A DNA stretch of 64,000 nucleotides from an uncultured Pseudomonadota bacterium (GCA_902781465.1 CACZJK010000001.1:221242-285241); one strand, 5' to 3'. Counted from the first letter of the stretch, positions 449-50,689 are shown. Notes: generated by a model from the sequence alone, not told the origin. Translations and numbers: made by a program.

Positions 449-2008
449 ATGTTTAGGAAATTAGCAATTATATTTATTTCTTTGTTTGGTATGTTGTTGG
501 CTGTTCCAACAATCGCGCCAAGTTTGGCACCTTATTTTCCATCTTGGATTCAACCAATTCCACTTGGTTTGGATTTAAAGGGTGGTGCGCAACTTTTATT
601 AGAGGTTGATACAGATGTTATGCTGAAAGAAAAGTCTGCGCAACTTTATGACGAAGTGCGTGGTGCATTGATTGACCGCAGTAAAGGTGTTATACGTTTT
701 TCTGATTTGCATAATAATGGCAACAGTGTCAGTTTGATTGTTCGTGAAAGCAACGAAGTTTCAAAGGCAAAAGGTCGTTTGAAAAGCGTTTTAGGTAATG
801 CGGTTGATGTTTCGTCAAATGGTAAGACTTTGACAATTTCTTATACATCAAAGGCGCGTGAAGAAATGATAAATGATGCAATGAATCGCAGTATTGAAAT
901 CGTTCGTCGTCGTATTGATGCGCTGGGGACAAAAGAACCTTCAATTCAAAGTCAGGGTGGTAAATATATCTTGGTGCAATTGCCGGGTGTTGATAATCCA
1001 GAACATATCAAAGAATTGATTGGTAAAACGGCCAAGATGACTTTCCATTTGGTAAATGAAAATATTACAAATGAACAATTGGCATCTGGTCACGCACCAA
1101 GCGGAACCATGTTCTTGGAATATATGGAAATGCCAGGACAAAAAATTCCTGTGTATTCCCGTGTAGAAGTTTCTGGTGACAGTTTGAAAAATTCAGAAGC
1201 ATCATTTGATCAAAATAATATGCCGGTTGTGACAACTGAATTTGATACATCTGGTGCACGCAGATTTGCAAAATTAACAACAGAACATGTTAACGAAAGA
1301 TTTGCGATTGTTTTGGATGACAAGGTTTTGTCCGCACCAACAATTCGTGAACCAATTCCAGGTGGTCGTGGACAGATTTCTGGTAATTTCACATTGCAAA
1401 GTGCAAAAGATTTGGCGGTGTTGTTGCGCAGTGGTGCTTTGCCTGCGCCTTTGGAAGTTATCGAAGAAAGAACAGTTGGTGCTGGTCTTGGTGCCGATAC
1501 AATCGCAACTGGTAAAATTGGTTCCGCAGTTGGTGTTTTGTTCGTCCTTGTCTTTATGGCAATGTTATATGGAATATTTGGTCTGTTCGCTGATATTGTT
1601 TTGATTGTGAATTTATTGATGATTGTCGGCGTGTCTGCTTTGTTCGGTGCAACACTTACATTGCCTGGTATTGCCGGTATCGTGTTGACACTTGGTATGG
1701 CGGTGGACGCAAACATTTTACCGTTTGAAAGAATTCGTGATGAAGTTCGCGAAGGTGTGCCAACATTACGCGCGGTTGATTATGGATTTACACGTTCAAC
1801 AAAAACTGTGTTGGACGGTGAATTGACAAACCTTATCTGTGCATTGATTTTGTTCCAATTTGGTGCAGGTCCAATTCGTGGTTTTGCGGTCACATTATCA
1901 ATCGGTGTTGCAACTACATTATTTACTTGCTTGTTGTTGACACGTGTTTTGGTTGATTATTATATGAACGGCAAAAGCAAAAAAATTGGCTATATCAGAA
2001 ATAAATAA
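449..2008 (+). CDS. secD: Protein translocase subunit SecD
   Basis: 519 aa. N-terminal TM, large periplasmic domain, and a C-terminal 6-TM bundle with the typical SecD motif GLGADTIATGKIG...LTLPGIAGIVLTLGMAVDANIL. Synteny with yajC and secF. Confidence 0.9.
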   Translation: MFRKLAIIFISLFGMLLAVPTIAPSLAPYFPSWIQPIPLGLDLKGGAQLLLEVDTDVMLKEKSAQLYDEVRGALIDRSKGVIRFSDLHNNGNSVSLIVRESNEVSKAKGRLKSVLGNAVDVSSNGKTLTISYTSKAREEMINDAMNRSIEIVRRRIDALGTKEPSIQSQGGKYILVQLPGVDNPEHIKELIGKTAKMTFHLVNENITNEQLASGHAPSGTMFLEYMEMPGQKIPVYSRVEVSGDSLKNSEASFDQNNMPVVTTEFDTSGARRFAKLTTEHVNERFAIVLDDKVLSAPTIREPIPGGRGQISGNFTLQSAKDLAVLLRSGALPAPLEVIEERTVGAGLGADTIATGKIGSAVGVLFVLVFMAMLYGIFGLFADIVLIVNLLMIVGVSALFGATLTLPGIAGIVLTLGMAVDANILPFERIRDEVREGVPTLRAVDYGFTRSTKTVLDGELTNLICALILFQFGAGPIRGFAVTLSIGVATTLFTCLLLTRVLVDYYMNGKSKKIGYIRNK

Positions 2009-7448: not shown

Positions 7449-8726
7449 ATGGAAAGGAGTTTTTTTATGAAAAAATATACGTTTGCTTTGGTTTTGGTTG
7501 CGATGTTGCCGGTGTTTTCTGCAACTGCGTATGGATATGGTCAATCGCAAAGCAAATATTATGCGACACGTCCTGTGGTTAAGACGAATACATATAAGAA
7601 GGCAAGTACAAGTCGCAGAACAGGTGGATATACTAACGTTATTACAAATAATTTTTATTATGGTGAACCATATCAATATCAATATAGTGCACCAATGGCG
7701 AATAATAAAAAGACAGGTTATTATAAAAAGCAAACTTCTGTCGAAAAGAAATCTTATGCATCACAAGAACGTAAATATTTCTTGGCACATCCTTTCTTTC
7801 AACCTTTGAAAGGCAAATTTGGATCTGTGACAGATTTTTCATATGCACACAATAATTTTAACTTTGATTTATTAAATGGAACTGTCGTTGGATTGGATGC
7901 AAATGTTCCTGCGGAATATAACCAAATTTTGAAGATCAGTGTTCCAAGAATAGGGGGCGAAGCAGAAACAACCCAATTTGCAATCAAAGAAGATATCAGT
8001 TATGGTTTAACCGATGCTTTAGCTTTGGTTTTGATGGCACAATATGATTCTACAAAGGTCGCTTTTAATGATTGGACTGGTGGTGATTTAGGTAATAAAA
8101 AAACAGATGCTGATATAAATTTATTGGGTATCGGCTTGCAAAATCGTTTCGTTGATAATAAAGATTGGATTATTATGGGCGAAGCTTTCTTCCAACATCA
8201 AAAAGATACTGCTAATACATTGATGGGTGGTGTGAAGGCTGGATATAAAATAGATAAAACAACTTTGTATGGTACTGCGCGTGTTTCTTATACTAATTTA
8301 ATAAATGGTGATACCTATGGTGCGTATGTAGATGATTCTACGGGTGATTGGTTGATTTTGACTTATCATACTAATGTTAAAGATGTTGTTCAGGTCGAAG
8401 GTGGACTTGGTGCGTTCGCTGTATTGAATAAATATTTCACATTAAACGGTGAATTGATGTACGGACATTATGATTGGCACAACCAATTAAATGTCAAAGG
8501 TGCAATCGGATGGCAGCCAAGTGATATGTTTGCTTTGAATTTGTATGCTTCCACTGTGTTGCATGATTCTGCAAAGGGAAAGATCAAGCAGTATATGAAT
8601 TATGATGTTAACCCAGAAATATCTGAATATGGTTATTCTTCTTCTGTGGTTTACACATATGGTGATTACAAGATTAACAATTACAACGAATGGAAAATCG
8701 GTGTGCAAGGAATCTTGTATTTCTAA
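7449..8726 (+). CDS. Outer-membrane beta-barrel protein (porin-like), hypothetical
   Basis: Signal peptide (MKKYTFALVLVAMLPVFSATAYG). Alternating amphipathic strands. C-terminal aromatic terminus (GILYF) typical of OMP beta-barrels. AGGAG RBS. Confidence 0.5.
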   Translation: MERSFFMKKYTFALVLVAMLPVFSATAYGYGQSQSKYYATRPVVKTNTYKKASTSRRTGGYTNVITNNFYYGEPYQYQYSAPMANNKKTGYYKKQTSVEKKSYASQERKYFLAHPFFQPLKGKFGSVTDFSYAHNNFNFDLLNGTVVGLDANVPAEYNQILKISVPRIGGEAETTQFAIKEDISYGLTDALALVLMAQYDSTKVAFNDWTGGDLGNKKTDADINLLGIGLQNRFVDNKDWIIMGEAFFQHQKDTANTLMGGVKAGYKIDKTTLYGTARVSYTNLINGDTYGAYVDDSTGDWLILTYHTNVKDVVQVEGGLGAFAVLNKYFTLNGELMYGHYDWHNQLNVKGAIGWQPSDMFALNLYASTVLHDSAKGKIKQYMNYDVNPEISEYGYSSSVVYTYGDYKINNYNEWKIGVQGILYF

Positions 8727-8755
8727 GGTCTTAATCTAATAAATTGGTGTTTGAT

Positions 8756-9592
8756 ATGAAAAAATATTTATTTTTGTTTATGGTTTTATGCGGCATAACA
8801 AATGCTTATGCAGAAGGTGTTGTTTTATCTGATACTTATTCAGATGATGAAAGTGTTGATGTTGCAACTAATGAAGAACCTTTTGTTGCGCCACAGACAA
8901 CATCAAAACAAAAAATAAAACCTGCAGCCAAGAATTTGTTGTTGACAGACAGTTCTGATCCTTTGTTTTTGATAGCAGATAACCAATTTTTAACTGATAC
9001 TTACATTTCTCATTTTGAAGATCATCTTCGTTTCGGACAATATGTTGGATATGGCGTGAACAATAATTTTGTTTTACATGCGAATATGCTTTATCAATGG
9101 GATTTGTCCGGAAAACATGAAAACGGTTTTTCAAGTACTGAATTCGGTGGAACATATCGTATGAGTCACGGTTTCAACGATAACCATATTATTTCTGATG
9201 TTTTGTTCGGATTGAAATTGTGGGGATCTTCACGTGTAAGAACACCTGAATATGCAGATTCAACTTATTATGCGGGACTTCGTTTCGGTCGTCAATATAC
9301 AGGTGTGACATTGGCGGGTACTATTAAATCTACATGGGTATTTGATGACGAACGTGGTTTGTCTTATCTTGATTTTATCCCAGAAGCATATTTCCGTTTC
9401 CCACAAGATTGGCGTGCAGGAATAGGATTTGATCTTCGTAAATCAACAAATGAACGTTTGTTGCCAAATCAAGAATGGTTGAATTTGAAACTGGTTCGTC
9501 AATATGGTAATACTCAATACGTTGGTCGATTTGATTATGAATTTGAAGATAAAGAAATTCAAGTCGGTGCAAATGTAAAAGTATTATTTTAA
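8756..9592 (+). CDS. Outer-membrane beta-barrel protein, hypothetical
   Basis: Signal peptide MKKYLFLFMVLCGITNAYA. C-terminal VKVLF. The ORF track begins at 8744; ATG 8756 fits the signal peptide better. Confidence 0.5.
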   Translation: MKKYLFLFMVLCGITNAYAEGVVLSDTYSDDESVDVATNEEPFVAPQTTSKQKIKPAAKNLLLTDSSDPLFLIADNQFLTDTYISHFEDHLRFGQYVGYGVNNNFVLHANMLYQWDLSGKHENGFSSTEFGGTYRMSHGFNDNHIISDVLFGLKLWGSSRVRTPEYADSTYYAGLRFGRQYTGVTLAGTIKSTWVFDDERGLSYLDFIPEAYFRFPQDWRAGIGFDLRKSTNERLLPNQEWLNLKLVRQYGNTQYVGRFDYEFEDKEIQVGANVKVLF

Positions 9593-9599
9593 TTAAATA

Positions 9600-10856
9600 C
9601 TATTTTTTACGAAACGAATTCCAATAATCAAAACGTTTTTTGATTTCGCGTTCAAAACCGCGTTCGACAGGTTTGTAAAAACTTACGCGTTTCATTCCGT
9701 CTGGAAAACAGTTTTGACCACTGCATCCTGTTTCGGTTTCTGGATCATAAATATAACCTTCACCATATCCAAGATTTTTCATCATCTTGGTTGGGGCATT
9801 TAAAATATTTTTAGGGGGCATCAAAGAACCAGTATCGCGTGCGACGCTATACGAAGCGATTTGTGCCTTATATGCAGAAATGCTTTTTGGCGCCGTTGAT
9901 AAATATATTACCAGTTCTGTTAATGCAATATCACCTTCGGGTGAACCCATGCGTTCGTAAATTTGCCATGCTGATAATGCGATAGACATAGCATTTGGGT
10001 CGGCCAAACCGACATCTTCCATTGCGAAACGGGTTAGGCGACGTAATATATAACGTGGATCTTGACCTGATGTAATCATACGTGCTACCCAGTAAAGTGC
10101 AGCGTCTGTATCTGATGCGCGTAAAGATTTATGGACAGCAGAAATCAAATTATAATGTTCGTCACCACTTTTGTCAGACATTGGTGCGCGTTTCTGTATG
10201 ATTTCATCCAATTCATCTGAGTTTAATTCTTGTTTGAAATTTGCGCCAATCAGATATTCAACACTGTTTAATAGAAAGCGAGCATCGCCATCAGCCATTT
10301 GGACAAGGTGAGATTTTGCATTTTCATTTAATGGTAATTTTTTATCTAAAAATTTTTCAGCGCGTTCTATTAAAATCAATAAATCCGCCGTACACAACGG
10401 TTTTAATACGCCAACATGACATCTTGAAAGCAGAGCGTTATTCAAATTAAAACTTGGGTTTTCAGTAGTCGCGCCAATAAAAGTCACTGTGCCATCTTCA
10501 AGGTATGGCAAAAGAGTGTCTTGTTGTGTTTTATTGAATCGATGAATTTCGTCTATGAATAAAAGAGTGTTTCGCCCAATATTGTGGTTTTGACGCGCGA
10601 CATCCATAACCTTTTTTATGTCTGATGTTCCAGAAAATACCGCGGACAATGGAACAAAATCCATATCAACAGAATTTGCCAATGCACGCGCAATAGTGGT
10701 TTTTCCACATCCCGGCGGACCCCATAAAATCAGATTTGACAGATTGCCACTGTTCACCATGCGGCGGACAATACCGTTTTCGCCAAGTAAATCAGTTTGA
10801 CCGACTATGTCGTCAATTGTATGTGGTCGCATTAAATCTGCCAAAGGTCTTGTCAT
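9600..10856 (-). CDS. rarA: Replication-associated recombination protein A (RarA/MgsA AAA+ ATPase)
   Basis: Walker A GPPGCGKTT, Walker B LFIDEIHRFNK, and the C-terminal MgsA helical domain. Confidence 0.85.
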   Translation of the reverse strand: MTRPLADLMRPHTIDDIVGQTDLLGENGIVRRMVNSGNLSNLILWGPPGCGKTTIARALANSVDMDFVPLSAVFSGTSDIKKVMDVARQNHNIGRNTLLFIDEIHRFNKTQQDTLLPYLEDGTVTFIGATTENPSFNLNNALLSRCHVGVLKPLCTADLLILIERAEKFLDKKLPLNENAKSHLVQMADGDARFLLNSVEYLIGANFKQELNSDELDEIIQKRAPMSDKSGDEHYNLISAVHKSLRASDTDAALYWVARMITSGQDPRYILRRLTRFAMEDVGLADPNAMSIALSAWQIYERMGSPEGDIALTELVIYLSTAPKSISAYKAQIASYSVARDTGSLMPPKNILNAPTKMMKNLGYGEGYIYDPETETGCSGQNCFPDGMKRVSFYKPVERGFEREIKKRFDYWNSFRKK

Positions 10857-35750: not shown

Positions 35751-35936
35751 ATGCGTAGTGGTATTTGGGAAATAGTTTTAATAGTTATTTTGATTTTGAT
35801 ATTGTTTGGGTCTGCAAAAATTCCTGCGATGATGAAAAATGTTGCAAATGGAATCAAGACTTTCAAAAAAGAAGTCAAAGAAGAACCAAAGCCAGTTGCC
35901 AAGAAAAAAGCACCGGCAAAAAAGAAATCAAAATAA
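35751..35936 (+). CDS. tatA: Sec-independent protein translocase TatA/E
   Basis: 61 aa. N-terminal TM followed by an amphipathic helix (IWEIVLIVILILILFGSAKIPAMMKNVANGIKTFKKE). tatB and tatC lie elsewhere at 45.7 kb. Confidence 0.75.
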   Translation: MRSGIWEIVLIVILILILFGSAKIPAMMKNVANGIKTFKKEVKEEPKPVAKKKAPAKKKSK

Positions 35937-35961
35937 GTTATAAAATTTATTTGTAATAAAA

Positions 35962-35987
35962 ACACTGGCGGATGCCGGTGTTTTTTG
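35962..35987 (+). terminator. Rho-independent terminator (acactggcggatgccggtgttttttgtt)
   Basis: 8-bp stem with GGAT loop plus a T-run after tatA. Immediately precedes leader RNA copy B. Confidence 0.65.
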
Positions 35988-35997
35988 TTAGAATAAT

Positions 35998-36188
35998 TTT
36001 GTCAGCAAGAGTTTTGTTGATGGGGACTACAAACCTCTGAACACACAGCGTCCAAGATGACGTTAAATCTCCAACCAAGATGGTTGGAGGGTCGCGAATA
36101 TATTGAATAAGCGCGCAATTTCTGTGTGAATTGTTTGTAGCCTCCAACCGCCCTTGAATTATAAGTGCGGTTTTTTCATTGATGAAAA
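35998..36188 (+). ncRNA. Conserved structured leader RNA, copy B (candidate riboswitch/attenuator)
   Basis: TTTGTCAGCAAGAGTTTTGTTGATGGGG, then hairpin CGTCC..GACG, hairpin CTCCAACCA-AGA-TGGTTGGAG, hairpin GCGCG-AATATATTGAATAA-CGCGC, and CCTCCAACCGCC-loop-GTGCGGTTTTTTC (terminator-like), followed by TTTTCATTGATGAAAA and then GGGAGG and the ATG at 36202. Confidence 0.6.
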
Positions 36189-36201
36189 CGGGAGGAAAAA
36201 C

Positions 36202-36954
36202 ATGAAACGAATCGCGCTTTTTATATTTGGTATATTTATATGTACGATTGTACACGCAGAAAATATAAACATTGATTGGAAGGTTGATGGTAATATATAT
36301 GATACCACAATTTGTACGCCAGGAGATTCAATAACTCCCCCACATGCACCGAGTAAATATGGATATCATTTTGAAAAATGGCAGGAAGTTTTCTATCGTG
36401 GAACCTTTAAAAATTTTTATGCAATTCCGGAAGATTCATCATTATACGTATCTGACATTAATGGAAATACAGTACCACAAAACAATGATTATTTAATTAT
36501 TGATGATGCATCAGATTATGCGACAAGTTATGCAGAAATTACATATAAAAACATAACTAATTATAAAAAGGGTGGTGTAACATTTACGCATTTTGATAAT
36601 TATACTGGAGAAACCACAACTCGAACCGTTTCGTTTGGCTTGCAAGGATGGTATTCTCCAACAAGAACTGTTAATGATCCCGTCGAATTTAATGGTCGAA
36701 TCCTTTTTTACGTGACCGCTGGTAGTAATGAAATATATATTGTTCCAACAGAAACATTAATTGTTAATGGTTCGGTTTCTGCCACTGATAAATCAACAAT
36801 GATTATAAACGGTTATGCGAATGTCGGTGCTATTGGAAAGATTTTATTTGGCAATCAATTTCTGTCTGGGCGTTGGCGTTTTTCCTATGATGGCACATGG
36901 GCTGATAACGGCAAGTTGGGATGGAAAGCAGATTATCAAATAACCCAAAAGTAA
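36202..36954 (+). CDS. Secreted protein P1 (cassette copy 1), hypothetical
   Basis: Signal peptide MKRIALFIFGIFICTIVHA. GGGAGG RBS. Clear paralog of the minus-strand ORF 49671-50414 (shared blocks PxxPTKYGYxFxxWxxVFYRGTF and GW...RWxxxYxGxW). The ORF track begins upstream at 36154. Confidence 0.6.
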   Translation: MKRIALFIFGIFICTIVHAENINIDWKVDGNIYDTTICTPGDSITPPHAPSKYGYHFEKWQEVFYRGTFKNFYAIPEDSSLYVSDINGNTVPQNNDYLIIDDASDYATSYAEITYKNITNYKKGGVTFTHFDNYTGETTTRTVSFGLQGWYSPTRTVNDPVEFNGRILFYVTAGSNEIYIVPTETLIVNGSVSATDKSTMIINGYANVGAIGKILFGNQFLSGRWRFSYDGTWADNGKLGWKADYQITQK

Positions 36955-36960
36955 TAAAAA

Positions 36961-37674
36961 ATGAAAAAAATATTTTATGTTTTTATATTATGCTTTTTTT
37001 CAGTGTCTGTAAAAGCCGACACAACTATATGCGATGCTGATATAAATGAATTTATAGCGATATATAAACCGTATAAATATACATGTGCACAGGGGGAATA
37101 TTTGCCTGCGAATACATTAGGGTGTGTTGTATGTCCAACAGGTTTCAATTGTCCTGGTGGAACATATGATTTTAATCCAGTTTATTTTCAGGGAATAATG
37201 TTTGATAATATAACAACAAGCATGATAAATAATATATGTGCAATCAATTTCCCAGATGAAATTATTGCAATATATAGACCAAACATACATACTTGTATGC
37301 CAGGCTATTTTTTGCCAGCAAATGTAGATGGTTGTACAATATGTCCCCAAAATAATAAATGCGTTGGTGGAACATATACTTTTAACGAAACAACATCACA
37401 AGGCATCGAGGCATGTTCTGGCAATACGCCGTATGCACCAACTGGTTCTGCGATTTGCTATGAACATATTTTGCATATTGGGGATGATATGGTTTATCTT
37501 AAAAGCACAAAACTTACCTCGCCGTCATTAAATGTTGGATGGGACGGTAATGTGTATTACGCAAATATGACGACTGTTCCAACCCCGATGAACAGTGCAA
37601 CCGAGCATGTTCTGAAAATAGAATACGACGGAACTATTTATTATGTTTGTGATGATACGACGTACAGAGAATAA
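36961..37674 (+). CDS. Secreted Cys-rich tandem-repeat protein P2 (cassette copy 1), hypothetical
   Basis: Signal peptide. Two tandem repeats of about 65 aa with the pattern IC..[5]..IAIYKP...TC..G.YLPAN..GC..CP....C.GGTY.FN. Conserved C-terminal domain (HILHIGDD.VYLKS.KLT.PSLN...YYVCDDTT). Paralog of 48961-49668 (minus). Confidence 0.6.
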   Translation: MKKIFYVFILCFFSVSVKADTTICDADINEFIAIYKPYKYTCAQGEYLPANTLGCVVCPTGFNCPGGTYDFNPVYFQGIMFDNITTSMINNICAINFPDEIIAIYRPNIHTCMPGYFLPANVDGCTICPQNNKCVGGTYTFNETTSQGIEACSGNTPYAPTGSAICYEHILHIGDDMVYLKSTKLTSPSLNVGWDGNVYYANMTTVPTPMNSATEHVLKIEYDGTIYYVCDDTTYRE

Positions 37675-48911: not shown

Positions 48912-48965
48912 AGTCCCTGTGCGTCCACCAGAAATAAAAAACCACCGCAAGGTGGTGTTTTTATT
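48912..48965 (+). repeat. Direct repeat copy 2 (att-like duplicate of tRNA-Lys 3' end plus terminator)
   Basis: 53/54 identity to 48752-48805, 107 bp downstream of copy 1. Abuts the stop codon of the P2 paralog. Confidence 0.8.
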
Positions 48966-49668
48966 CCCCGCATGTTGTATCATCGCACACGTAATATATC
49001 GTATTGTTGAATTCCAGTTTTAAATAGTGTTCGCTGTCGCGGTTCATATATGTTGGAATTGTTGTCATATTCGCATAAAAGATACCGTCGTTCATACCGA
49101 TATTTAACGATGGCGTGGTCAGTTTATCAGATTTCAAATAAACCACATCGTCCCCAATATGTAATATGTGTGGATAACAATATGCAGTTCCGCCTGGCGC
49201 ATATGTTCCGTTTGGGCATGGTTCGATACCTTGGTCGGTTGTTTCGTTAAATGTATATGTTCCACCAATACACTTATTACCAATGGTGCATGTTGAACAA
49301 GAAACGCTGTTCATTGGTAAATAATACCCCGCATTACAAAGAATTGTTTTTGGAGTCCACATCGCGTATAATTCAGCCGGAAAATTGGTCGAACAAACAT
49401 TATTTCCGCCAGACGTTATCTTTTGTGTCCAATCTATGCCTGATGATTTTTGCTCGTTAAAAGTCAGTTCTCCACCATTGCAAGAATACCCATTTGGGCA
49501 ATTCATACAATTTATAGAATTAGCCGGCAAAAATTGATTTGCATCACAATTTATGTTTTTTGGTGAAAAGAAAGCATACATTTCACCAATCCCAGAATCG
49601 CAAACCAGGTCATCTGCGAAAGATGGCATAACAAAAACGAAAAACAACAAAGGAAATATTTTTATCAT
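48961..49668 (-). CDS. Secreted Cys-rich tandem-repeat protein P2 (cassette copy 2)
   Basis: Signal peptide MIKIFPLLFFVFVMPSFA. Same two-repeat Cys pattern (C..[5]...LPAN...C..CP....C.GG...FN) and conserved C-terminal domain as 36961-37674. Confidence 0.6.
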   Translation of the reverse strand: MIKIFPLLFFVFVMPSFADDLVCDSGIGEMYAFFSPKNINCDANQFLPANSINCMNCPNGYSCNGGELTFNEQKSSGIDWTQKITSGGNNVCSTNFPAELYAMWTPKTILCNAGYYLPMNSVSCSTCTIGNKCIGGTYTFNETTDQGIEPCPNGTYAPGGTAYCYPHILHIGDDVVYLKSDKLTTPSLNIGMNDGIFYANMTTIPTYMNRDSEHYLKLEFNNTIYYVCDDTTCGE

Positions 49669-49670
49669 GA

Positions 49671-50414
49671 TTAATCCAATTGTTTTTCAGCAATCCAACC
49701 ACCACGATTATAATCGTCCCAATTTCCGTGATATCGCAAGAGCCATTTTCCAGAATAAGGGTAATTGTTTACGATGCGTGTATAGTATGTGCCATTGGAA
49801 TTTGTTTGTTTTGCGAGAACCAAAAAAAATTGTCCAGGCTGATATTTTTTGCCAAGAAAATTTACTACAGTATCTACATTCGTCGCCCATCTTGTACCGT
49901 ACGACCATATATTATGCATGTCTGTATATATGCTATTTTCAATGGTAATTCTTGGTGTGGTTTGGCTGATGCAATCACTATAAAGATTTTTATTAATATA
50001 AACATAACAAGAAGCTCCATAAGGGGTTGCCCAGTCAGAAAAAGATCGAGTTATATTTGTTATTCGTATTTCTATTTCTTCGTCTTTGTATTCTGGGACA
50101 TCGCTGGCGTTATTAACTATTATATAATCGTTTTCACGGGGAATATTTGAACCGTTTGTATCGCCCAGGTAGTCGCCGGTGTTGGTTGGTATGTTATTCC
50201 AGGTTGCAAATGTTCCGCGATAAAATACAGGGGCCCAGCCGTCAAAATCATATCCGTATTTTGTTGGTGTTGGTGGTAAATTTACCGCGCCCCCAACAGT
50301 ACAAGTTTGTGTGGCGTATGTTTCGTTATCTATAACAAATTTTAAATCGGTTGTTTCTGGCCATGCGTCAACGCAGATAAACATTGTGCATAAAATAAAG
50401 GCGATTCGTTTCAT
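49671..50414 (-). CDS. Secreted protein P1 (cassette copy 2)
   Basis: Signal peptide MKRIAFILCTMFICVDA. Paralog of 36202-36954. GGAGAG RBS. Stop lies 2 nt before the P2 start. The ORF track extends to 50426. Confidence 0.6.
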   Translation of the reverse strand: MKRIAFILCTMFICVDAWPETTDLKFVIDNETYATQTCTVGGAVNLPPTPTKYGYDFDGWAPVFYRGTFATWNNIPTNTGDYLGDTNGSNIPRENDYIIVNNASDVPEYKDEEIEIRITNITRSFSDWATPYGASCYVYINKNLYSDCISQTTPRITIENSIYTDMHNIWSYGTRWATNVDTVVNFLGKKYQPGQFFLVLAKQTNSNGTYYTRIVNNYPYSGKWLLRYHGNWDDYNRGGWIAEKQLD

Positions 50415-50427
50415 CTGGCTCTCCATC

Positions 50428-50622
50428 TTTGATTTGAATCAAAACACCGCCAGAAAATCGGGCGGTTGGAGGTTAGATACTATTATTGTGGAATAGTGCG
50501 TTTATTCAATATATTCACGACCCTCCAACCACATGTTGGAGACATCTTTTTCGTCATCGTCTTTTTTTGACGCCACAATATCGGGTATCTACCCCCGATC
50601 AGCAAAACTCTTGCTGACAATG
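50428..50622 (-). ncRNA. Conserved structured leader RNA, copy C (candidate riboswitch/attenuator), minus strand
   Basis: The reverse complement reads TTGTCAGCAAGAGTTTTGCTGATCGGGGG, then the hairpin GCGTC..GACG, the hairpin TCTCCAAC-ATGT-GGTTGGAGG, GTGAATATATTGAATAAACGCAC, and CCTCCAACCGCC-CGATTTTCTG-GCGGTGTTTTG, followed by TTTGATTCAAATCAAA and then GGAGAG and the ATG. Confidence 0.6.
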
Positions 50623-50689
50623 TTATTATAGCAATAAAAGCTTTCTTTTTAAAGTTGAAATTTCATGATAACTTTATATCATTTAATTT

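Follow-up and report, generated by a model that had tools for sequence, protein, structure and literature searches.

A candidate riboswitch-like leader RNA with a doubly pseudoknotted sensor domain and competing terminator and antiterminator strands

A 64,000-nucleotide stretch of DNA from an uncultured Pseudomonadota bacterium (GCA_902781465.1 CACZJK010000001.1:221242-285241; the whole of which is called the window below) contains three copies of a structured leader RNA of ~180 nucleotides (nt), located at 25656-25845 (+; copy A), 36001-36176 (+; copy B) and 50618-50441 (-; copy C). Each has a conserved, covarying and pseudoknotted domain, a competition between three strands for pairing, and a fixed place downstream of a promoter box and ahead of the start of a gene. 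As in riboswitches that terminate transcription, a covarying domain in the 5′ untranslated region (UTR) is linked to mutually exclusive terminator and antiterminator pairings that use a strand of the sensor domain. We regard the leader family as a strong candidate for a control system that is new and riboswitch-like, and think it probable that every copy acts in cis as a self-contained leader that attenuates transcription and is operated by an effector.

Three co-oriented copies had been recognized in an initial annotation of the window, and a covariance model built subsequently, as that annotation had proposed, recovers all three together with many relatives. The window copies score 133-143 bits (A 133.6; C 137.3), while the next-best match in the window, the reverse strand of copy B, reaches 18.7 bits and the rest of the 64 kb does not exceed 19 bits. 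Mean column identity among copies A, B and C is 74% in a MAFFT alignment. The sequence CCTCCAACCGCC has exactly three occurrences in the window; six matches are found if up to two mismatches are allowed, compared with 1.4 expected by chance.

The sensor domain is a double reciprocal loop-strand pseudoknot, unlike a row of simple hairpins. The loop of each of the hairpins P2 and P7 pairs with the strand just 3′ of the other hairpin, and the two loop-strand contacts enclose P4 (which is optional), P5 and P6. The percentages of pairing given here are for the alignment of 113 copies. At its 5′ end the RNA forms the P1 hairpin of eight base pairs (bp), seven of which show two-sided changes (96.7% paired), and then enters the G-run of P2; the 5′ block TTGTCAG..TGAT.GGGG of the initial annotation is real, and comprises these two elements. 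P2 is a stem of 3-4 bp between the segments S1 and S2 (91.2% paired, with exchange between GC, GU and AU pairs) that occurs as GAGG/CCUC, CAGG/CCUG, GGAG/CUCC, GAAG/CUUC and AAGG/CCUU. Its loop, L2 (CUACAAAC), pairs with the strand X (GUUUGUAG, 36133-40 in copy B) located directly 5′ of CCUCCAACC. The resulting pseudoknot, PK1, comprises 7-8 contiguous bp in 101 of 102 copies, in dozens of different sequences, and its central three pairs each appear as four pair types with zero unpaired cells. Right after S2 comes the 5′ strand of P3, 5-8 nt in length and always immediately 5′ of P4, which pairs with essentially the whole of the P7 loop. P3 averages 5.7 contiguous bp, compared with 3.9 when the loops are swapped among copies, and is found as 92 distinct duplexes.

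The strand continues as P4, 97.9% paired where present, and then P5, 97.5% paired, formed by strands 1 and 2, with strand 1 changing together with strand 2 in variant copies. P6 is 94.5% paired, with UA, CG and GC found 38, 36 and 12 times at one position; it closes a nearly invariant loop, GA(A/U)AUA...AAUAA, and in some copies has an extra hairpin inserted. P7 is 95.9% paired and shows a swap between UA (79) and AU (34). The initial annotation had drawn P4 as a hairpin with a GUC..GAC core, P5 as CUCCAAC-loop-GGUUGGAG and P6 as a hairpin around GAAUAUAUUGAAUAA. All three are real and the P6 stem covaries; P4 is optional when the family as a whole is considered. Absent from that account were the L2:X and P3:P7-loop pairings, the local P2 stem and the -10 box TGnTAnAAT.

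In the model alignment of the 113 copies standard pairs occupy 94.6% of cells, compared with 78.8% after shuffling, a value that none of 500 shuffles reaches. Cells changed on both sides number 804, compared with 196 in the shuffles, and if the 3′ partners are slid by 1-3 columns only 37-48% are paired. These statistics bear out the earlier proposal that the helices are kept by compensatory changes. P2 and P3 lie outside the covariance model, so that their support is independent of model fitting; P6, P7 and the antiterminator are independently recovered by RNAalifold on a plain MAFFT alignment. The single-sequence minimum free energy (MFE) fold of copy B has a z-score of -4.2. RNAalifold applied to the three window copies fused P2 and strand 3 into one long nested helix; this was rejected, as the 102-113-copy data show a local P2 plus PK1.

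In many leaders of helix-turn-helix (HTH) genes (e.g. the loci L069, L021 and L060) the loop of P1 (GUGAU, UGAUUA) is complementary over 4-6 nt to the terminator loop (CUUCAUCAC, CAUAAUCAC), at columns 13-34 and 288-338 of alignment A6. A kissing contact between these loops is possible from their sequences; taken over the whole family, the excess is marginal (4.58 vs 4.25 bp; ≥6 bp in 24% vs 13%). The remaining loop-loop combinations give zero pairing signal.

The proposed switch is based on GGUUGGAGG, which can pair with either of two partners but not with both; one of the partners overlaps the intrinsic terminator. Strand 2 (UGGUUGGAGG) may pair either with strand 1, forming P5, or with strand 3 (CCUCCAACC), and its complementarity to CCUCCAACC(G) (36141-50 in copy B) is perfect. 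The duplex of strands 2 and 3 has 9-11 contiguous bp in all 113 copies. Copies found by the model and not by the sequence pattern have variant pairs of strands 2 and 3, namely GGUCAGGAGG/CCUCCUGACC, GGUCGGGAGG/CCUCCUGACC, GGCAGGAGA/UCUCCUGCC and UGGUUGGAGA/UCUCCAACCA, and a divergent subfamily scoring 22-37 bits has GGUCGGGGUG/CACCCUGACC and GUCGGGGAG/CUCCCCGAC, the latter as G(G)U(C/U)GGGGAG/CUCCCCGAC(C). Strand 1 is altered too in every one of these. The compensated variants involve all three strands, and therefore both alternative helices are under selection. Mutually exclusive pairing was the central idea of the initial annotation, and the joint changes in three strands uphold it; as read from the sequence, the arrangement is that of a 1:2 / 2:3 / 3:4 attenuator. 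The resemblance of strands 2 and 3 to a Shine-Dalgarno (SD) and anti-SD pair, also remarked upon there, holds for typical copies, but divergent ones use GGGGUG/CACCC or GGGGAG/CUCCCC. The complement of strand 3 plus the 5′ strand of the terminator, GCGGUUGGAGG, resembles the 3′ end of Escherichia coli 16S rRNA (GCGGUUGGAUCACCUCC), which we take to be probably a coincidence.

The divergent copies (22-37 bits; L089 806-1009 (-), L082 5464-5671 (-), L058 2256-2421 (-), L077 2474-2710 (+) and L034 6535-6739 (-)) share genomes with typical ones. They keep P2 and PK1, the pairing of P3 with the P7 loop and the 1:2 / 2:3 / 3:4 logic, and differ in a P6 of the form UUGGU...ACCAA and in the switching strands GGGGAG/CUCCCC. 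They may be a sister class of different specificity, responding to a second signal.

An extended -10 box, TGnTAnAAT, is found ~7 nt 5′ of the first paired base in all three window copies, and TATAAT is the consensus at the -10 position across 102 copies. The promoter scanner returned no full -35/-10 pair for copy B, where transcription is predicted from the sequence to start at ~36000-36002, at the foot of P1. At the 3′ end of the leader the terminator helix is 92.7% paired (113 copies), with a G+C-rich stem followed by 4-7 U nucleotides, and thus has the form of an intrinsic terminator. AACCGC(C)-loop-(G)GCGGUU plus a U-tract, as initially described, is found in each of the window copies. The terminator loops are 9-15 nt; a simple scanner that allowed loops of 3-8 nt did not flag the terminator in the three window copies because the loops exceed this limit.

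The SD sequence and ATG follow the U-tract by 25-45 nt in all three window copies, and follow CCTCCAACCGCC by 31-62 nt in most copies of the family. The stem between the U-tract and the downstream A-rich tract, which the initial annotation had also noted, is present and averages 7.3 bp compared with 5.0 bp in shuffles, with the A tract running into the SD, but it is a weak A/U-rich helix. In the MFE structure of copy B CCUCC pairs with the SD of the gene, a pairing open to the free CCUCC of the terminated fold. The CCUCC:SD and U/A-tract pairings are compatible with a second, translational lock, without being strong evidence for one. In one subgroup of HTH-gene leaders (L017, L022, L024 and L025) an inverted repeat, TCGCGTATGATGCGA, overlaps the spacer between -35 and -10; to judge by its sequence it could be an operator for XRE autoregulation, adding control at the level of the promoter.

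The genes that follow the leader fall into two large classes. Downstream of 205 elements, among the matches listed, are 87 genes for signal-peptide proteins, 71 for small proteins (≤125 amino acids, aa) and 12 others, with 35 that are cut off or have no open reading frame (ORF). Most of the secreted proteins have no Pfam match; a few have Flg_new, outer-membrane beta-barrel or Cys-rich ephrin-receptor-like modules. The small proteins match HTH_31 (XRE-type) in 42 of 55 cases, and the HTH gene is monocistronic in both of the loci checked. Others appear from their N-terminal sequence to be family-2 glycosyltransferase-like and P-loop proteins. P4 is present in 39 of 39 leaders of signal-peptide genes, compared with 18 of 55 leaders of small HTH genes. 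The secreted-protein regulon of the initial annotation therefore survives with respect to the signal-peptide genes, but XRE-type HTH genes form an equally large class, to which a few other genes, ORF-less regions and a phage operon are added. Its estimate of 35-65% identity among the flanking proteins was too high; the products of B and C are 28% identical and that of A is unrelated to B.

The phage operon is found on an IMG/VR contig (L106) whose other genes include those for a large terminase, a helicase-like protein and a ParB-methyltransferase. A 129-bit leader (9521-9707, -) heads a three-gene operon (8990-9505, 8549-8980 and 7735-8538, all -), whose products are an unknown protein of 171 aa, a lipoprotein and an ADP-ribosylglycohydrolase; the genes for the terminase and the ParB-methyltransferase lie on the other strand. 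It appears that a phage of these bacteria uses the switch of its host. Copies followed by no ORF (L002 2293-2700 (+), L075 520-760 (+), L083 1732-2100 (+), L084 ~650-1064 (-) and L068 2075-2300 (+)) occur in termite-gut 'Rickettsiales bacterium' metagenome-assembled genomes (MAGs) and in one other MAG. Here a long hairpin, GGGG(C)...UCUCUCC...(G)CCCC, follows the leader, with TAGT/ACTA-rich inverted repeats 3′ of it (e.g. TAGTCATTAGTCTATAGTC) and no match in Rfam; this region may be a non-coding RNA under control of the leader.

These features suggest the following mechanism. A sigma-70-type promoter would fire ~7 nt before P1, and the first ~140 nt would fold into a compact sensor domain held by the two reciprocal loop-strand pseudoknots around the P4-P5-P6 junction. 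While strand 1 keeps strand 2 within P5, strand 3 would be free; its AACC, with the GCC that follows, would complete the terminator, so that the transcript ends at the U-tract, and in any read-through RNA its CCUCC may cover the SD. If instead strand 3 captures strand 2, an antiterminator of 9-11 bp stacked beside PK1 would block the terminator and leave the SD open. An effector would bind the folded domain, lock P5 and switch the genes OFF. Either a macromolecule (protein or RNA) or a small molecule could play this part, a signalling nucleotide being the most attractive because the regulon consists of regulators and surface proteins. The opposite polarity may apply in this model, because the antiterminator would stack directly on PK1. 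More tentatively, the leader might be a new class of riboswitch for a small signalling or host- or partner-derived ligand, acting as a master switch of surface and secreted proteins and XRE regulators in the order Rs-D84; we hold this more specific proposal to be possible rather than likely.

A cis role is supported by the upstream promoter box, the spacing to SD and ATG, the unrelated downstream genes, the synteny of copy A and the occurrence of tandem leaders. Several points weigh against an effector-operated attenuator. Most of the copies were ascertained by a pattern that fixes strands 2 and 3, and for this reason the covariation of the antiterminator rests on roughly 15 variants; on alignment A6 it is 99.1% paired and almost invariant. 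The model alignment is itself biased towards the modelled helices. Conservation within the leader is highest in the switching strands, which is atypical for the expression platforms of riboswitches and could reflect a trans-acting partner; pairing constraints that are three- to four-way could also account for how little strands 2 and 3 vary. Comparison of nested MFE structures with terminator and antiterminator gives a mean ΔΔG (difference in free energy) of +9.4 kcal/mol, but a nested model cannot treat an antiterminator that crosses PK1 and P3, and the figure is uninformative. Some copies have no downstream ORF. Lastly, we infer the promoter, termination at the U-tract, condition-dependent read-through and the binding of an effector.

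The most serious alternative, though in our judgement an unlikely one, is that the same attenuator is worked by a macromolecule in trans: an RNA-binding protein that promotes antitermination or termination, a 30S subunit on the GGAGG of strand 2, or an RNA pairing with CCUCCAACC/GGUUGGAGG. Strands 2 and 3 are nearly invariant between genomes that are ~75% identical elsewhere, although the three- to four-way pairing alone could freeze them. They look like SD and anti-SD, yet divergent copies have lost GGAGG/CCUCC and kept the pairing. The associated genes are non-metabolic and suggest no obvious metabolite. No RAT, ANTAR, PyrR or T-box model matches the leader, and a double-pseudoknot domain with conserved unpaired bases, such as those of P6, is more typical of RNAs that bind ligands.

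That the ~180-nt terminated transcript is instead a multi-copy trans-acting small RNA, directing a CCUCC seed against SD sequences or serving as a protein sponge, with read-through being incidental, is improbable. Such an RNA would have its own promoter and terminator and a high copy number, as found here, the CCUCC adjoins the terminator stem in the terminated fold, and some copies lack an ORF downstream. But a conserved and compensated antiterminator makes sense only with regulated read-through, and most copies are strictly oriented and placed 25-60 nt before the SD/ATG; moreover tandem leaders occur and the presence of P4 differs systematically with the class of downstream gene. A dispersed repeat (like a miniature inverted-repeat transposable element, MITE, or a repetitive extragenic palindrome, REP) or a 5′ UTR that spread by duplication together with a family of genes, devoid of regulatory structure, might account for several copies per genome and for three within 25 kb of the window. 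It is nevertheless very improbable, and the MITE and gene-family-UTR readings were ruled out by the covariation and the unrelated downstream genes: the copies of a single genome have diverged from one another, and every helix shows compensatory changes; they are always co-oriented with the gene, terminal inverted repeats and target duplications are lacking, and a locus is kept in a genome only ~75% identical. A leader-peptide attenuator, in which the pairing would depend on a ribosome translating a short ORF that covers strand 1, would share the trp-leader-like 1:2 / 2:3 / 3:4 logic and could use the GGAGG within strand 2, but has a negligible chance of being correct, as AUG or GUG follows P1 or GGAGG in only some copies, the reading frames differ, the region covaries as RNA helices, and the alignments contain no conserved start codon, frame or short ORF.

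The preferred reading, that of an effector-operated attenuator, applies to a family found widely in gut bacteria. The exact pattern TGGTTGGAGG-N45-75-CCTCCAACCGCC was used to scan genomes, one per species, giving at least 105 loci, and metagenome contigs, giving at least 120 loci from which 104 model matches were recovered. Among the matches listed, the covariance model finds 113 copies in the genome loci and 104 in the metagenome loci, scoring 64-151 bits, and pattern and model together give at least 205 distinct elements after removal of duplicates. The genome-scan loci, among the matches listed, are almost all MAGs of uncultured Alphaproteobacteria, and the hosts include human, mouse, horse, chicken, sheep, goat, deer, buffalo and cattle (gut or rumen) and the termite gut. 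Counting the fetched loci alone, several genomes contain at least 5-8 copies. Many of the leader-bearing MAGs are labelled Candidatus Enterousia. One paper (PMC12306168) places Enterousia in the order Rs-D84, whose members have genomes smaller than ~1 Mb, live by fermentation in a highly dependent way, and lack a tricarboxylic acid cycle, respiratory chains and standard uptake transporters. The organism of the window is present in a cattle-rumen assembly; its housekeeping DNA is ~75% identical to the nearest fetched genome, where a leader is syntenic with copy A. On four contigs two complete leaders stand in tandem, 43-49 nt apart (Table 1); in that of L068 the second leader has its own -10-like box, in place of a gene start.

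Pattern matches in MAGs of Verrucomicrobiales, Acidimicrobiia and Akkermansia were discarded as chance, since the model finds nothing there. True copies are found on contigs binned as Muribaculaceae (L015 3531-3715, -), Bacteroides fragilis (L038 5520-5710, -) and Bacteroidales (L093 831-1017, +), for which mis-binning is more likely than real presence outside the Alphaproteobacteria. Sampling anchored on the HTH protein gave 188 pattern matches in the metagenome collection, none of which was confirmed by tblastn.

The family is apparently undescribed. Rfam 15 (4227 covariance models) run over the whole window at gathering thresholds returned two tRNAs only, and on 12 related loci spanning all leader subtypes one tRNA only, in keeping with the novelty claimed initially; at E≤10 around copy B nothing on the element exceeded 17 bits. 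Full-text literature searches by organism, motif vocabulary and literal strand sequences found no description of the family. The candidate structured RNAs in the human-microbiome catalogue of Fremin & Bhatt often neighbour HTH-XRE genes, and the motif was not found in the 200 of its 408 supplementary files that were covered; the family may sit unnamed in such a catalogue.

Table 1. Positions of the leader elements and associated genes in the window, with tandem leaders on other contigs
Feature	Position	Strand	Remarks
Copy B, extended -10 box TGtTAGAAT	35986-35994	+	Read from sequence; aligns in 3/3 window copies
Copy B, P1 hairpin, 5′ end (GUCAGCAA / UUGUUGAU)	36001-36021	+	Covariation
Copy B, P2 hairpin	36022-36037	+	S1 GGGG 36022-25 with S2 CCUC 36034-37
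Copy B, P2 loop L2 CUACAAA(C)	36027-34	+	Pairs with X
Copy B, P3 5′ strand CACACAG	36042-36048	+	Pairs with P7 loop 36122-36128
Copy B, P4 hairpin (CGUC/GACG)	36049-36062	+	Covariation; optional in family
Copy B, strand 1 (CUCCAACC)	36069-36076	+	5′ half of P5, anti-antiterminator; covariation
Copy B, strand 2 (UGGUUGGAGG)	36081-36090	+	3′ half of P5 or 5′ half of antiterminator; pairing with strand 3
Copy B, P6	36091-36114	+	Short stem closing conserved GAAUAUAUUGAAUAA loop; covariation
Copy B, P7 hairpin (CAAUU/AAUUG)	36116-36133	+	Loop UCUGUGUG 36121-28 is P3 3′ strand
Copy B, X (UUUGUAG, plus G36133)	36134-36140	+	Pairs with L2 as pseudoknot PK1
Copy B, strand 3 (CCUCCAACC)	36141-36149	+	3′ half of antiterminator; last four bases also begin terminator stem
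Copy B, intrinsic terminator AACCGC-(15-nt loop)-GCGGUU then UUUUUU	36146-36176	+	Covariation, sequence
Copy B, U-tract/A-tract hairpin (UUUUCA..UGAAAA)	36171-36204	+	SD GGGAGG 36190-95, ATG 36202
Copy B, downstream two-gene operon	36202-37674	+	Gene 1: 250 aa, signal peptide, weak Flg_new repeat
Copy B, operon gene 2	36961-37674	+	237 aa
Copy A, promoter-like site TTTACT-18-TAAAAT with TG	25620-25649	+	Promoter scan
Copy A, leader	25656-25845	+	P1 25656-76; P2/L2 25677-92; P4 25704-17; strand 1 25726-32; strand 2 25743-52; P6 25753-84; P7 25786-805; X 25806-12; strand 3 25813-21; terminator 25818-45
Copy A, downstream gene	25869-26258	+	129-aa Cys-rich signal-peptide protein; no Pfam match; unrelated to B protein
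Copy C, promoter-like site TTTAAA-17-TATAAT with TG	50625-50653	-	Promoter scan
Copy C, leader	50441-50618	-	P1 50618-598; P2/L2 50597-82; P4 50572-52; strand 1 50541-35; strand 2 50531-22; P6 50521-498; P7 50496-80; X 50479-73; strand 3 50472-64; terminator 50467-41
Copy C, downstream two-gene operon	48961-50414	-	Gene 1: 247 aa, signal peptide, Flg_new repeat, ATG 50414
Copy C, operon gene 2	49668-48961	-	235 aa
Tandem leaders, L068	1646-1823, 1867-2075	+	
Tandem leaders, L110	395-572, 616-824	+	
Tandem leaders, L125	2507-2678, 2306-2457	-	
Tandem leaders, L142	634-805, 409-588	-	

A tatA-like gene (35751-35935, +) ends directly upstream of copy B. Its terminator (35960-35992, +) comprises CACUGGC-GGAU-GCCGGUG plus a T-run, and the T-run overlaps the promoter box of leader B.

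In some genomes at least eight leaders precede XRE regulators and secreted or outer-membrane proteins, which suggests that a single RNA-based signal governs surface presentation. If the effector is a small molecule the leader, with its unusual fold, would define a new class of riboswitch, and would offer a route to learning what these unculturable cells sense. The covariance model is an immediate means by which the regulon may be mapped in any Rs-D84 genome, and the copy on a phage contig suggests exploitation of the same switch by phage.

The leader works by a known principle, transcription attenuation, yet matches no described family. It resembles terminator-type riboswitches (SAM-I, FMN, purine) in having a pseudoknotted domain in the 5′ leader, an aptamer-helix strand that doubles as antiterminator, an intrinsic terminator directly 5′ of the SD and occasional tandems. 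Unlike these it has no Rfam match, its switching strands are its most conserved part, and it controls regulators and secreted proteins, not enzymes or transporters. The trp leader (RF00513) likewise has three overlapping alternative helices ending in an intrinsic terminator; here, however, there is no conserved leader peptide, ~140 nt of structured domain precede the switch, and the score with the Trp_leader model is 14.8 bits, where the gathering threshold is 41.

In the T-box, RAT, BglG, ANTAR and PyrR systems a multi-copy regulon also has a shared leader, with a trans factor setting the choice between their terminator and antiterminator. The present leader differs in having no T-box sequence or specifier loop, with an antiterminator that is an uninterrupted helix of 9-11 bp, and in having neither a two-hairpin ANTAR motif nor a RAT; the PyrR model reaches 16.5 bits against a gathering score of 54, on the tatA terminator region outside the element. 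The c-di-GMP-I and c-di-GMP-II riboswitches (RF01051, RF01786) occur in many copies per genome before genes for adhesins, secreted proteins and transcription regulators, and c-di-GMP-II is pseudoknotted. The leader described here matches neither of them in Rfam scans even at E≤10 and its architecture is different, but it shares with them the multiplicity of copies, similar classes of genes and, with c-di-GMP-II, a pseudoknot; by analogy, its mixture of regulators with surface proteins is reminiscent of the genes under second-messenger riboswitches.

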